DNA from: Calditrichaceae bacterium
Lineage (GTDB): Bacteria; Calditrichota; Calditrichia; Calditrichales; JBFXGD01
NCBI GenBank assembly: GCA_050173015.1
Contig: JBFXLE010000011.1
Location: forward strand, 43,718-107,717
DNA length: 64,000 nucleotides
Reading direction: 5' to 3'
The notes below the pieces were generated by a model, which saw only the letters and a program-made list of their open reading frames with translations, had not been told where the DNA came from and ran no database searches. Position numbers and translations under genes: made by a program. Positions within the stretch are counted from its first letter, which is position 1. Every line of letters begins with the position of its first letter. Positions 176 through 21,623 of the stretch are shown in pieces.

Positions 176-709
176 TCATCGCTCAATATAATTTTTTAGC
201 GAGGATAGATTCAAATTTATCAGCTCATTGAATGCGGGCCGGACAATTATAAAGTCCATTAGTTTTGACAGTACGGGAGGCGCCATATAAGTGATTTCCC
301 AAATGGCTTCCGTGCTTCCGTCCGGTAGTGCTTCCAGTACAATGGACTGCCGGATATTATGAATTAACGATTTCCTTACCGTATCGATCTGAGTAAAAGT
401 GATCCGGTCAGATGACTCGTAAATTTCTATCCGTTCTTTAATTTTCAGCTCTCTTCCGATGATTGAATAATCTACAACACGCAGGGATTTATTAAGTGAG
501 ACTTCGGGATAAAATTCTATCTGCCGTATAGATTTATACCAATTCGAATATTCATTTGGTCCGGTAACCGCTGCCCAGACAACCGTTTCGGGCGCCTCAA
601 TTGTAATCGATTTCCTTATACTGGTTTCGGGATTTAATATGATCCCGGTTACTAAAATGATAGAAAATAGTACGATAAGAATTGCTGAAACCACAGCTGA
701 AGTTTTCAT
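176..709 (-). CDS. SRPBCC/START-like (polyketide cyclase/dehydrase) protein with N-terminal membrane anchor
   Basis: SITIEAPETVVWAAV...W and C-terminal NLSSLKNYIE; the ATG at 709 overlaps the upstream stop (ATGA), so the ORF-track extension to 814 is probably spurious. Confidence 0.75.
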   Translation of the reverse strand: MKTSAVVSAILIVLFSIILVTGIILNPETSIRKSITIEAPETVVWAAVTGPNEYSNWYKSIRQIEFYPEVSLNKSLRVVDYSIIGRELKIKERIEIYESSDRITFTQIDTVRKSLIHNIRQSIVLEALPDGSTEAIWEITYMAPPVLSKLMDFIIVRPAFNELINLNLSSLKNYIER

Positions 710-1485
710 CTGATTAAGAGCATCTTTTTGGTATGGATTTGTTTTTGTCCCGTCAGACGGTAATAATATAATCCTGACGCGGCCGGGATACCGTTTTCGG
801 ACTGTCCGTCCCATAGAACGGTGTGTCTGCCCGTATTGTATATTCCGTCTGCCAGGCTACGAACTAATCTACCCCGGCTGTCAAAAATTTGCAAACTAAT
901 TTTTTGAGGACGGTCCAGTGAGAATCTGATGGTGGTTTCGGGATTAAAGGGATTGGGAAAATTGTGATTCAGCACAAAACTGATCGGATTTTCGGGACCG
1001 GAATCAACTGATGTTGCCAAAAGTCCGTCGATGGAAGCCCTGATATCGGAGATGTTTACGCCAAATCTTAAATATCTGATAATTCCTTCCTGATCGACCA
1101 CTACACTGTAATCATTAGCAACCTTATATGCAGCGCCGGTTTGTTGTCCGTTAAGCAGCAGAGGGTATTGAATCCCTGTACTGTTTTTAAAACTTTGGAG
1201 CTGTGAAGAGTTTCCGTTATAGTAATCAATTCCAACCGCCTGAAAAACGGTTTCACTATAATTATCCGCGATTTGGGTTTGCGTACTGCCGCCGGCAGCG
1301 AGACAAGACGGTCAATTGTATCCGACAAAAAATAGATAGATTACTTTGCCTTTATAATCACTGAGTTTAAATGTGCCTCCGTCCAGCCGGTTTAAAGTAA
1401 AATCGGGCGCCGGATCGCCTACCCCGGCAGTCAGTCCCGCTGAAAGGAGAAGTACCAATATTAACGGGAGAAACTTCGATTGCAT
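706..1485 (-). CDS. Secreted selenoprotein: AhpC/TlpA-like redoxin with UxxC (U58-P-S-C61) plus FlgD-Ig/T9SS-type C-terminal domain, 259 aa
   Basis: ATG at 1485 with GAGGA upstream; MQSKFLPLILVLLLSAGLTA-GVGDPAPDFTLNRLDGGTFKLSDYKGKVIYLFFVGYN[TGA]PSCLAAGG...IQYPLLLNG...SVVVDQEGIIRY continues in frame into the 706..1101 ORF ending NFPNPFNPETTI...KMLLIR. Confidence 0.85.
1279..1306 (-). promoter_or_regulatory. Candidate bacterial SECIS hairpin
   Basis: After UGA: ccgucUUGUcucGCUGCC-GGC-GGCAGUacGCAA; the G-starting apical loop lies 18 nt downstream of the UGA. Confidence 0.65.
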
Positions 1486-12237: not shown

Positions 12238-14691
12238 TTACTTTATCAGCATCATTTTTCTAATCGAACTTTCGCGGTTATCAACGGACAGTTTATAAAA
12301 ATAAAGCCCGCTTGATAAATTTGAACCGTCAAATTTTACCTGATAGGTTCCGGTGGCCTGATTTCTATCGACCAGGCGCGCCACAGTTTGACCAAGGATA
12401 TTATAAACAAGCACACTTACATGGCCGGGTTTGGAGATAGAATATTTGATGGTCGTTTCCGGATTAAACGGATTCGGATAATTTTGATTTAATTTGAAAT
12501 CCGCTATAATAAAGCCGTCATCATGAACCGCAGTGGGAATTCCAAATTCACTGGCGCCGATATCAATCCGGTTGCCGTAGATCCTGTCCACGCCATTTAT
12601 CGCGTACTGATACAAATTTAAACCGGTTGTATCCGGGGTACCGGCATCGATGCACGCGGAACCCTCCGAAAGGTTGTATAGAAGGGAATCGGCGAATTCC
12701 GGGGCGACGTCCAGACAATTGGAATAAATCCCGCTGTACTCAATTCCGGCTCCGTCACCGCTGAAACCGGAGGAATCACCCTCGATGTCACAGTAATAAA
12801 AATCAGGATCACAGGTAGTTTCCAACCGGATCTGTGTGCTTTCATTGCCATAAATAATGTTATTGTACAACTCATTTACAGAAGTTGCCCGGAAACTAAT
12901 TCCTCCGGATTGATTTTCTACTATCGTATTGTTAATAAAACGAGAATTGGACTGATAGCTGTATATACCATAACTGGAATTATTGAAGATCAAATTGCTG
13001 ACAAAATCCGCCTGATTGGAGTATCCGGTATAAACGCCGGATGATGAATTATTGAATATTTTATTGTTATAGATCCAGGGTTGAGAATCGCTCCCGCCAA
13101 TCAACATACCGTAACCATAATTATCATGAATACCGCAGTTTTCGATCACAGGCGAACTATTATCAATATAAACGGCCGCATTGATCCCGTGATTAAAACG
13201 AATATCTGAATGACGAATAAGCAATTTTGAAAATCCTGTGATGTAAAATGCCCCACCATCTTTGTTGATATTGTTGGGATCCCCGTAAGGATTTCCGTAT
13301 TCTATAACGCAGTAGGAAAAAACCGATGTGTCGTTGGCCGCAGGAGTTTGATTAAATAAAATCCGGTTCCAGCCTTCTTGCTGATCCGCGGCGGTGAACT
13401 TAATAGAATCACTCTCCGCGCCTTCCGCGATAAGAGTCCCCTGCACATCGATATAGAAAAATCCCTGGAATATTATTTCGACACCGGGTTCGATAGTCAG
13501 TGTGGTCCCGTCTTTAATAATGATATTTCCATCGATCAGATAGGGTGAATTTTCTTTCCCCCACACCCCCGCAACGGTATCAGTTTTGACATAATATTCG
13601 TACGCGCCGATATCGATCAATCCATTGCTAAATCGTTGTTTACCGGATAGATCAAGAACAGGTAAGGAAGCGTCATAAATATCGTTATATCCCTTGTCCC
13701 GGCAGGGAGAAAGCTTCTGAAGGGCATAGGGGGCATCTCCGGTATTCATAAAGAGAGGATCACTATCAAGGCAATTGCTATAGATTCCCGTAAATTCTGC
13801 GCCTGCGCCGTCTCCGTTAAAATATTCTTTTCCGCCCATGATATTGCAATTGTAAAAATTAGGATCACAGGTTGTTTCCAACTGAATTTGTGTCCCGGTA
13901 TTAGCATAAATAGTATTATTGTACAAATTATTTACCGAATTCGCGCGGAAAAAAATTCCTCCGTTTTGATTTTCTACTATCGTATTGTTAATAAAACGAG
14001 AATTGGACTGATAGCTGTATATACCATAATTGAAATTATTGAATATAAGATTATTGACAAAATCCGCCTGATTGGAGTATCCGGTATAAACGCCGGATGA
14101 TGAATTGTTGAATATTTTATTATTAAAAATCCCGGGTTGAGAACCGCTCCCGCCAATCAACATACCGTAACCATAATTATCATGAATACCGCAGTTTTCG
14201 ATTACAGGCGAAGCGTTATCAATATAAACGGCCGCATTGGTGCCATGATTCTGACGAATATCGGAATGACGAATGCTCAGTTTTGAAAAGCCAGTGATGT
14301 AAAAAGCGCCGCCGTCCTGACTGTTTGAATAAGGTTTACCGTATTCAATAATACAGTAATCGAACAAGGAACTGTCATTCGTAGCGGGCGTCCCGGAGAA
14401 AAGAATCCGGTTCCACCCCTCCGTTATGTTGGATGCCGTAAACTTGATCGAGTCACCGGCGGTGCCCACTGCCTGAACGGAACCCTTGACATCAATCATG
14501 TAAAATCCTTCTGCAATAACGGTTGTACCGGGATTGACCCGCAGATGAACACCGTCTTCAATTAAAATGTCACCTTTTACAAAAACCGTGTCCGCATCCC
14601 ACGCTGAATCGGTTGAAATCGTTCCGGAAACATCGATAGATGAGGCCAGAGTAAAAGATGTCAGACATAATACCAGTAAAATTTTGTACAT
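12238..14691 (-). CDS. Secreted right-handed beta-helix repeat protein (two tandem modules) with T9SS/FlgD-type C-terminal domain
   Basis: Signal peptide; Asn-rich PbH1-like repeats twice, each module ending IDIGA; C-terminal QNYPNPFNPETTI...KMMLIK. Confidence 0.85.
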   Translation of the reverse strand: MYKILLVLCLTSFTLASSIDVSGTISTDSAWDADTVFVKGDILIEDGVHLRVNPGTTVIAEGFYMIDVKGSVQAVGTAGDSIKFTASNITEGWNRILFSGTPATNDSSLFDYCIIEYGKPYSNSQDGGAFYITGFSKLSIRHSDIRQNHGTNAAVYIDNASPVIENCGIHDNYGYGMLIGGSGSQPGIFNNKIFNNSSSGVYTGYSNQADFVNNLIFNNFNYGIYSYQSNSRFINNTIVENQNGGIFFRANSVNNLYNNTIYANTGTQIQLETTCDPNFYNCNIMGGKEYFNGDGAGAEFTGIYSNCLDSDPLFMNTGDAPYALQKLSPCRDKGYNDIYDASLPVLDLSGKQRFSNGLIDIGAYEYYVKTDTVAGVWGKENSPYLIDGNIIIKDGTTLTIEPGVEIIFQGFFYIDVQGTLIAEGAESDSIKFTAADQQEGWNRILFNQTPAANDTSVFSYCVIEYGNPYGDPNNINKDGGAFYITGFSKLLIRHSDIRFNHGINAAVYIDNSSPVIENCGIHDNYGYGMLIGGSDSQPWIYNNKIFNNSSSGVYTGYSNQADFVSNLIFNNSSYGIYSYQSNSRFINNTIVENQSGGISFRATSVNELYNNIIYGNESTQIRLETTCDPDFYYCDIEGDSSGFSGDGAGIEYSGIYSNCLDVAPEFADSLLYNLSEGSACIDAGTPDTTGLNLYQYAINGVDRIYGNRIDIGASEFGIPTAVHDDGFIIADFKLNQNYPNPFNPETTIKYSISKPGHVSVLVYNILGQTVARLVDRNQATGTYQVKFDGSNLSSGLYFYKLSVDNRESSIRKMMLIK

Positions 14692-19905: not shown

Positions 19906-19930
19906 CCCGGTCGATGGTTTGGGAAAAATT

Positions 19931-21610
19931 GTCCACTGATTTCACGGATTACACAGATTACTTAGAAAAAAAATATATCAATTTAATTCTAATCCGTGAA
20001 AATTAGTGAAATCCGTGGACCATCTTGAAAGGCCATCGAAAAAGAAACAAGCCCGCGAATTACACGAATTACCACTAAAATGAAAAAAAGTAATTATTAA
20101 TTGGTGAAAATTAGTGAAATTAGTGGGCCATCTTAAAAAACCGCAAGAGAAGAAGAATTGTCCACAGATTGCACAGATTATTTAGAAAAATAACTATATA
20201 AATTTAATTCTAATCCGTGAAAATCGGTGAAATCCGTGGACCATCTTGAAAGGCCATCGAAAAAGAAACAAGCCCGCGAATTACACGAATTACCACTAAA
20301 ATGAAAAAAAGTAATTATTAATTGGTGAAAATTAGTGAAATTAGTGGGCCATCTTAAAAAACCGCAAGAGAAGAAGAATTGTCCACAGATTGCACAGATT
20401 ATTTAGAAAAATAACTATATAAATTTAATTCTAATCCGTGAAAATCGGTGAAATCCGTGGACCATCTTGAAAGGCCATCGAAAAAGAAACAAGCCCGCGA
20501 ATTACACGAATTACCACTAAAATGAAAAAAAGTAATTATTAATTGGTGAAAATTAGTGAAATTAGTGGGCTATCTTAAAAAGCCGCAAGAGAAGAAGATT
20601 GTCCACAGATTGCACGGATTACACAGATTATTTAGAAAAATAACTATATAAATTTAATTCTAATCCGTGAAAATCGGTGAAATTCGTGGACCATCTTGAA
20701 GGGCCATCTAAAAAGAAACAAGCCCGCGAATTACACGAATTACCACTAAAATGAAAAAAAGTAATTATTAATTGGTGAAAATTAGTGAAATTAGTGGGCT
20801 ATCTTAAAAAGCCGCAAGAGAAGAAGATTGTCCACAGATTGCACGGATTACACAGATTATTTAGAAAAATAACTATATAAATTTAATTCTAATCCGTGAA
20901 AATCGGTGAAATTCGTGGACCATCTTGAAGGGCCATCTAAAAAGAAACAAGCCCGCGAATTACACGAATTACCACTAAAATGAAAAAAAGTAATTATTAA
21001 TTGGTGAAAATTAGTGAAATTAGTGGGCTATCTTAAAAAGCCGCAAGAGAAGAAGAAATGTCCACAGATTGCACGGATTACACAGATTATTTAGAAAAAT
21101 AACTATATAAATTTAATTCTAATCCGTGAAAATCGGTGAAATCCGTGGACCATCTTGAAAGGCCATCGAAAAAGAAACAAGCCCGCGAATTACACGAATT
21201 ACCACTAAAATGAAAAAAAGTAATTATTAATTGGTGAAAATTAGTGAAATTAGTGGGCTATCTTAAAAAGCCGCAAGAGAAGAAGATTGTCCACAGATTG
21301 CACGGATTACACAGATTATTTAGAAAAATAACTATATAAATTTAATTCTAATCCGTGAAAATCAGTGAAATTCGTGGACCATCTTGAAAGGCCATCGAAA
21401 AAGAAACAAGCCCGCGAATTACGCGAATTACCACTAAAATGAAAAAAAGTAATTATTAATTGGTGAAAATTAGTGAAATTAGTGGGCTATCTTAAAAAGC
21501 CGCAAGAGAAAAAGAATTGTCCTCAGATTGCACGGATTACACAGATTGTTTAGAAAAAAAATATATATAAAATTAATTCTAATCCGTGAAAATCAGTGAA
21601 ATTCGTGGAC
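19931..21610. repeat. Tandem array of 220-230-bp units, each with two long imperfect hairpins (8 type A, 7 type B); REP/BIME-like
   Basis: A hairpins (GTCCAC...GTGGAC) start at 19931, 20160, 20381, 20601, 20830, 21060, 21289, 21519; B hairpins (GCCCGCG...GTGGGC) start at 20051, 20272, 20493, 20722, 20951, 21181, 21410. Confidence 0.97.
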
Positions 21611-21623
21611 GATCTTTGCTTTT

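Follow-up and report, generated by a model that had tools for sequence, protein, structure and literature searches.

The 64-kb stretch of DNA analysed here (the window), taken from contig JBFXLE010000011.1 of a Calditrichaceae bacterium, carries on its minus strand a redoxin gene whose reading frame is interrupted by a TGA at the catalytic codon. We consider it likely that this gene encodes a genuine exported selenocysteine (Sec) redoxin made up of a signal peptide, a redoxin domain and a C-terminal tail of the type IX secretion system (T9SS). The parts of this reading differ in strength: the gene very probably encodes a selenoprotein, and T9SS-dependent export of that selenoprotein to the cell surface, deduced from the signal peptide together with the tail, is slightly favored. 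In public annotation the gene appears in two parts, one a "redoxin domain-containing protein" of 57 aa and the other a fragment without a name.

A redoxin frame interrupted at its catalytic codon

The frame extends from the ATG at 1485–1483 to a TGA at 708–706 and has 259 sense positions with one internal stop, the TGA at codon 58 (1314–1312), which is followed by CCG TCT TGT to give GYN-U-P-S-C. A single 780-nt frame with one TGA interruption, and a ribosome-binding site ahead of its ATG, had been proposed in an earlier reading of the bare sequence; both were borne out when the minus strand was read from 1485 to 706 (the Shine-Dalgarno-like element is given in Table 1). An open reading frame (ORF) list made with translation table 11 divides the frame into pieces of 57 aa (1312–1485) and 131 aa (706–1101, GTG start). 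The latter matches the 131-aa ORF that the sequence-only reading described as the sole part recovered by its ORF track; the 57-aa piece is listed too. Past TGA58 the frame stays open for 201 codons. Its terminal stop is also a TGA, placed where homologs end, so that one codon would be read in two ways inside one gene.

A single redoxin domain spans the interruption. Pfam AhpC-TSA (PF00578) matches residues 22–138 with 58.5 bits (gathering threshold (GA) 26, E 8.3e-16) and Pfam Redoxin (PF08534) matches residues 22–146 with 48.4 bits (E 1.1e-12), both crossing the TGA, in keeping with the claim that intact redoxin sequence lies on either side of it. The frame exceeds chance, since one Pfam domain spans the TGA and FlgD_ig comes after it. 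In the AlphaFold2 model of the read-through product, the mean predicted local distance difference test (pLDDT) score is 92.8 and the structured domain begins near residue 24; residue 58 lies where helix 59–75 begins, and a low-confidence linker at residues 160–165 is followed by a beta-sandwich of high pLDDT at residues 170–257.

The column of the TGA is a cysteine column in the family. A first protein search returned six full-length homologs of 34–46% identity, all six with Cys at the U58 column and again three residues on. A profile search of 1.84 billion representative proteins gave 579 matches at E ≤ 1e-30, and the family alignment comprises 131 sequences of 140–300 aa, the window's own included with its U written as C. 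The TGA had been said to fall at the first Cys of a CxxC, with Cys counterparts to be expected in homologs; indeed, of the 130 others in the family 108 hold Cys at this column and one holds Tyr, and the remaining 21 are C-terminal fragments that begin after it. In an alignment of 92 full-length sequences no columns other than C58 and C61 are invariant, with Cys in 91 of the 91 homologs. The pairing of a UGA with Cys at a redox-active site is a criterion by which selenoproteins are recognized, and the alignment shows such a pairing at codon 58. Family members bear KSB1 and Caldithrix labels. The 21 representatives that resemble C-terminal fragments reach the end of the sorting tail where they appear in the profile-search table. 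Nineteen of them were listed by the script, all with M, V or L as their first residue; 17 start 1–28 residues past Cys61, and P0008 and P0009 start about 59 past U58. The other two (P0238 and P0270) were scored by the script as "full-like", with gaps at the motif, and were not placed by residue.

The stop itself recurs in relatives. The window's exact 57-aa ORF is seen on five contigs, and TGA58 is therefore not an assembly slip. A BLASTP search with the 57-residue N-terminal piece returned three other ORFs of 57, 57 and 59 aa that are 84%, 68% and 58% identical, the first being an NCBI "redoxin domain-containing protein" of a Calditrichaceae metagenome-assembled genome (MAG). All four short ORFs, the window's among them, finish at GYN or GYS, the residue ahead of the Cys column of full-length homologs. 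A profile of the short pieces and the N-termini of 12 Cys forms then matched 1475 proteins of 30–111 aa at E ≤ 0.01, and among the best 120 of these (the window's included) 107 terminate exactly at column 57. The other 13 stop at columns 55, 58, 65 (six), 70, 94, 97, 98 and 100. Contig breaks are not the cause, because such ends would not gather on one column. The ending xG[YFHWAC]x, which is family-like, is found in 88 of the 107; the remaining column-57 enders (GHW, KSN, ASW and others) represent other thioredoxin (Trx)-fold subfamilies. A stop at codon 58 is thus kept in diverged orthologs, which is another criterion for selenoproteins, and the paired stop that the sequence-only reading proposed to look for at position 58 of homologs is present at the protein level.

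Conservation continues past the TGA. The window protein keeps 11 of the 13 well-conserved columns (at least 80%) before codon 58 and 19 of the 20 at or after it, and its mean identity by segment to 91 other members (0.54/0.34/0.30) equals that of a Cys-form control (0.48/0.32/0.29). The 131-aa C-terminal ORF is also intact in two strain variants, 95% and 99% identical. Relaxed selection downstream of the TGA, which had been named beforehand as the mark of a simple nonsense mutant, is not seen in these columns and identities.

Predicted export and the sorting tail

The N-terminus (MQSKFLPLILVLLLSAGLTA) looks like a signal peptide of the Sec-translocon type, and a hydrophobic N-terminus is common to family members. 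The tail scores 37.3 bits with the NCBIfam model for the T9SS type A sorting domain (TIGR04183, cut-off 23) and 38.6 bits with Pfam FlgD_ig (PF13860, GA 27, E 1e-9, residues 184–247), which upholds its earlier assignment to the FlgD-Ig/T9SS-type C-terminal domains; it also resembles the C-terminal region of PorU (6za2, E 0.001). The same T9SS type A tail occurs on an 817-aa beta-helix protein (NosD / choice-of-anchor Q) encoded at 12238–14691 on the minus strand, which shows that the host puts this tail on other cargo.

In the model that we propose, the precursor would pass the inner membrane through the Sec translocon and fold in the periplasm, after which a T9SS would recognize the tail and move the protein across the outer membrane to be attached to the surface or released. 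Once outside, it may serve as a selenol/thiol-disulfide oxidoreductase that reduces or isomerizes disulfides or oxidized substrates beyond the cytoplasm. Its candidate partners would be the products of the same gene cluster: a co-transcribed TlpA-like CxxC redoxin, a DUF6029 protein and a membrane-anchored SRPBCC protein.

Of the alternatives, the one that survives best, though we think it unlikely, has a genuine selenoprotein remaining in the periplasm, where it would work in the manner of ResA or TlpA and be re-reduced through CcdA/DsbD, the FlgD_ig-like tail being a structural or binding module. Several observations speak for it and against surface export: no T9SS component (PorV, SprA/Sov, PorU, GldKLMN) was recognized among the 47 window ORFs scanned, Pfam Por_Secre_tail (PF18962) reaches 25.7 bits, just under its GA of 27, and an enzyme beyond the outer membrane would have no evident source of reductant, which is available in the periplasm. 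Furthermore, the closest relatives of known structure (ResA, TlpA-like) are extracytoplasmic reductases of the membrane side, and a TlpA-like periplasmic partner is co-encoded. Periplasmic confinement is, however, difficult to reconcile with a TIGR04183 score above the curated cut-off, with a family that as a whole keeps the tail to its last residues, and with the second window protein that bears the same tail. The window also holds LolB1_Flavo, a marker typical of Bacteroidota-like envelopes, which likewise argues against a protein retained in the periplasm.

Proposed decoding of the in-frame TGA

For the selenoprotein to be made, UGA58 would be decoded as Sec by SelB and Sec-tRNA(Sec), directed by a hairpin at 1306–1279, and the terminal UGA, without such a hairpin, would terminate translation. 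The predicted hairpin has a GC-rich upper stem of 6 bp (GCUGCC/GGCAGU, 1299–1285) closed by a GGC apical loop (1293–1291) that begins 18 nt past UGA58, and a lower stem of 4 bp (1306–1303 / 1282–1279). The rule for bacterial selenocysteine insertion sequence (SECIS) elements reportedly given by Zhang and Gladyshev in 2005 asks for a loop of 3–14 nt with a G in its first two bases, an upper stem of at least 4 bp and a loop lying 16–37 nt from the UGA; the hairpin has this geometry. Of 3186 coding sites in the window, 2.7% pass the rule at an energy as good or better. No hairpin of this kind follows the motif in L001, the one Cys-form relative with DNA at hand (−5.7 kcal/mol). The support that the hairpin lends to Sec decoding, as predicted from folding, is modest.

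A positive control came from a scan of genome contigs with generic patterns derived from a four-sequence alignment, which gave 80 loci. L001, a Cys form of 41% identity, is the sole close relative among them; the remaining 79 loci carry general Trx-fold genes and served as controls. In these more distant genes, the in-frame stops at redox-site positions are TGA in 22 of 22 cases, and the SECIS rule is passed by 14 of the 22, with loops mostly 17–23 nt from the UGA; the UxxC gene of L060 has an identical GGC loop. The 22 positions are spread over 21 of the 80 loci, L045 having two. Four loci are of the UxxC kind (L018, L028, L029 and L060) and the others of the peroxiredoxin (Prx) type (L013, L016, L022–L025, L033, L035, L044, L045, L049, L053, L062, L073 and L076–L078). 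They derive from Chloroflexota, Acidobacteriota, Methylomirabilota, Vulcanimicrobiota, Desulfobacterota and other lineages, and are probably selenoproteins of known classes.

A number of observations count against Sec decoding in the window gene. The SECIS rule alone, irrespective of energy, is passed by 14.2% of the 3186 coding sites in the window, and 15.3% of coding sites reach −10 kcal/mol or better. The 71-nt fold is no better than chance when compared with shuffles (z = +0.33), and an Rfam search at gathering score and at E ≤ 10 gave no SECIS and no credible match. No selA, selB, selD or tRNA-Sec gene lies in the window. The stop of the short ORFs in the family is known from protein ends, the identity of the stop as TGA not being shown. 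Finally, one full-length family representative (P0164) reads GYN-Y-PPC and is the only sequence with Tyr at the U58 column, reflecting either that the redox centre has really been lost or an error in base calling. No other selenoprotein genes were found in the window.

The lack of Sec machinery genes within the 64-kb window and the statistically modest hairpin would fit a UGA58 that is read through without Sec, by a near-cognate Trp or Cys tRNA, or mostly terminates translation, in a genome without the machinery. This we hold to be improbable. That 107 of the 120 best short relatives keep a stop at the catalytic codon favors a dedicated decoding system, the redox-site stops of the controls are exclusively TGA, mostly followed by a hairpin at the corresponding place, and the UxxC Prx-like class is established in the passages of PMC13188914 that treat it. 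Nor is TGA a sense codon throughout the genome. Of the window's 42 stop-to-stop frames that reach 200 codons or more, nine stop at TGA, 24 at TAA and nine at TAG; these nine ends, together with that of the gene itself, identify TGA as an ordinary stop in the host. The existence of TGA-terminated ORFs, and the lack of a second TGA-interrupted gene in the window, rule out a recoded genome.

A pseudogene, in which a TGY Cys codon mutated to TGA in this lineage, needs one base change (TGT or TGC to TGA) and would agree with the division of the gene by annotation pipelines. It is highly improbable, as ORFs of 58–84% identity and many distant relatives end at the same codon, a common end point that excludes contig-end artefacts, and as neither the 201 codons past the TGA nor the strain variants show decay. 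Cys in relatives, the shared stop, intact constraint, the hairpin and the normal use of TGA as a stop elsewhere together indicate that TGA58 is not a nonsense mutation. The last alternative, two separate genes of which one encodes a secreted peptide of 57 residues and the other an unrelated product of 131–200 residues, reproduces the split form reported by gene callers and can be set aside, since it would sever strand 3 of the thioredoxin fold from the helix with the active site, leave the second piece without a signal peptide despite its export tail, and have it start at the GTG of codon 129, the first listed in-frame start past the TGA.

Gene neighborhood and relation to known systems

The selenoprotein gene is the third of four same-strand genes, in the order TlpA-like, DUF6029, selenoprotein and SRPBCC (Table 1). 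The DUF6029 gene ends 19 nt ahead of the selenoprotein start. At the other end, the selenoprotein stop and the ATG of the SRPBCC gene overlap as ATGA, which suggests translational coupling and a true SRPBCC start at 709; the ORF list places this start at 814. The order TlpA-like, DUF6029, tailed redoxin is repeated in a Bacteroidales MAG (L001), where a DUF6029 homolog, 34% identical, occupies the same position; this homolog (8238–9890 in L001) holds a masked run that appears as X in translation. A similarity search with the DUF6029 neighbor returned DUF6029 clusters alone. The DUF6029 protein may be an outer-membrane barrel, and the conserved cassette provides a first functional context for DUF6029. 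Four proteins of the window fall into 90%-identity clusters together with named Calditrichaceae MAG proteins, which marks the host as Calditrichaceae-like.

Table 1. Features of the selenoprotein gene and its neighbors, in the order of the minus strand
Feature	Position	Strand	Remarks
TlpA/ResA-like CxxC redoxin, WCKPC, hydrophobic N-terminus	3515–3009	−	same place in L001
DUF6029 protein, 504 aa, signal-peptide-like N-terminus, C-terminal ...RLNSLF	3019–1505	−	
Shine-Dalgarno-like GAGGA	1496–1492	−	6 nt ahead of ATG
Start ATG and predicted Sec-translocon-type signal peptide, residues 1–20, MQSKFLPLILVLLLSAGLTA	1485–1426	−	cleavage site placed by eye
ResA/TlpA-like thioredoxin-fold redoxin domain, residues 22–158	1422–1012	−	Pfam, Foldseek, phmmer
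In-frame TGA, codon 58, proposed Sec, first position of U-P-S-C redox motif	1314–1312	−	
SECIS-like hairpin	1306–1279	−	minimum free energy −10.0 kcal/mol over 45 nt
TGT, Cys61, resolving Cys of UxxC	1305–1303	−	column invariant in family alignment
Flexible linker, residues 159–169	1011–979	−	pLDDT <50 at residues 160–165
Beta-sandwich FlgD_ig-like / T9SS type A sorting domain, residues 170–259, no Cys	978–709	−	
SRPBCC (Polyketide_cyc2), 177 aa, N-terminal hydrophobic helix	709–176	−	likely ATG 709–707
True stop TGA, overlapping ATG 709–707 of next ORF (ATGA)	708–706	−	

Elsewhere in the window, 1.7 kb between phosphoglycerate mutase and S13 peptidase genes (19929–21616) holds no ORF of at least 40 aa. 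It is built of some 7.5 tandem copies of a 221–230-nt unit, 69–100% identical, each with two related 48-nt sub-repeats at spacings of 108 and 113–123 nt. The array has no Rfam match at gathering score, and a CRISPR was ruled out, as the stretches that separate the sub-repeats are repeats too.

The window gene belongs to a large selenoprotein subfamily that is systematically mis-annotated, with a sorting signal that is without precedent in the literature searched and a conserved operon. The split annotation is repeated in well over 100 sequence clusters, indicating that the selenoproteomes of these uncultured phyla are under-counted; the signature of an ORF that ends at GYx and restarts after the CxxC could be used to retrieve missed selenoproteins of the family. 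In the literature, no paper was found that links bacterial selenoproteins with type IX secretion or with secretion generally, and the matches listed for extracellular, secreted or periplasmic selenoproteins all concern animal proteins. No paper joining Calditrichaeota with T9SS was found. For Sec in Calditrichota none was found either, save a remark in a passage of PMC3916229 on a SelD-NifS fusion of Caldithrix abyssi. The prokaryotic selenoprotein passages of PMC13188914 and PMC2398784 do not mention secretion.

A wider view, which we put forward as speculation, is that a family of surface selenoenzymes exported by type IX secretion could occur widely in Calditrichota, KSB1, Bacteroidota and uncultured lineages related to them, with about one-sixth of the family lineages using Sec and all of these invisible to standard annotation. 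The surface Sec redoxin would then be the outermost part of a conserved redox module of the envelope, whose other members would be the periplasmic TlpA-like CxxC protein and the DUF6029 outer-membrane protein. If display or release by T9SS holds true, selenium-based redox and thiol chemistry would extend beyond the cell, with a bearing on how sediment bacteria handle oxidants, disulfides, metals and polysulfides.

By sequence and fold, the redoxin domain is nearest to the extracytoplasmic thiol-disulfide oxidoreductases of the ResA/TlpA type. Foldseek matched ResA-type and Etrx2 structures with TMt 0.78–0.88 and root-mean-square deviations of 1.8–3.0 Å (ResA up to 0.88; 1su9, TMt 0.87; 2ls5, E 4.4e-11), and phmmer matched 3kcm at E 1.9e-10. 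The thioredoxin fold, a UxxC at the N-terminus of helix 1 and an N-terminus that by eye is of the signal type are all features of ResA/TlpA/DsbE proteins. The NCBIfam ResA subfamily model NF002854 gives 40.1 bits against a cut-off of 170, and DsbE (TIGR00385) has no entry for the window protein in the NCBIfam scan. As for peroxiredoxins, the typical Pxxx(T/S)xxC motif is absent, the window protein reading FFVGYN-U-PSC; the BCP equivalog model of NCBIfam gives 21.1 bits against a cut-off of 140, and the Prx-type control loci read ...TPG*T, unlike the window protein.

The combination of PF00578 with a UxxC motif, here U-P-S-C, defines the Prx-like thiol:disulfide oxidoreductase selenoproteins. 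UxxC/UxxU members of this class (PF00578) are listed as "predicted with high confidence" in passages of a 2026 review (PMC13188914), and the UxxC "Prx-like 1/3" selenoproteins are described as abundant in a passage of the Global Ocean Sampling (GOS) survey (PMC2398784), so the statement in the sequence-only reading that UxxC thioredoxin-fold proteins are an established selenoprotein class agrees with both. The window protein resembles this class in scoring above the cut-offs of both PF00578 and PF08534, in having Sec as the first residue of UxxC, and in having mostly Cys homologs. It differs in its predicted signal peptide and its T9SS sorting domain, neither of which is mentioned in the passages on the class. 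Because the class is already listed, while no report linked to secretion was found, the window protein is placed in the known class of UxxC Prx-like/ResA-like selenoproteins, its T9SS tail giving it an architecture that is new, and does not represent a new kind of system. The export of a selenoenzyme had been called unusual for bacterial selenoproteins; this holds for the tail and not for the Sec redoxin, as UxxC Prx-like selenoproteins were already established. The GOS fusion "Prx-like 3/Unknown_3" is set apart by its description, which in the passage concerned gives three conserved Cys including a CxxC, whereas the window tail has no Cys.

Comparison with Bacillus subtilis ResA (1su9/1st9), TlpA and DsbE shows the same fold, an extracytoplasmic location and a CxxC at the start of helix 1. 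Their motif is W-C-x-x-C, that of the window protein N-U-P-S-C, with Sec in place of the first Cys. Secondly, the window protein has a predicted T9SS tail for its anchoring in place of a membrane helix or lipid. Pneumococcal Etrx2 (4hqz/2yp6) provides, by the title of its PDB entry, a precedent for a surface-displayed bacterial redoxin. The NCBIfam family NF041054, "ResA-like WAxxUGC motif-containing protein", is likewise ResA-like with a U in its named motif, and is a weak match of the neighboring TlpA-like gene; it differs in motif and length (a 354-position model), and the window protein does not match it at E ≤ 0.001. Lastly, like T9SS type A cargo, the window protein begins with a predicted signal peptide, continues with a functional domain and closes with a beta-sandwich, some 80 residues long, that matches TIGR04183; its host is Calditrichaceae-like. 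The T9SS-dependent cargo families named in NCBIfam are metallopeptidases, whereas the cargo predicted here is a small redox selenoenzyme.

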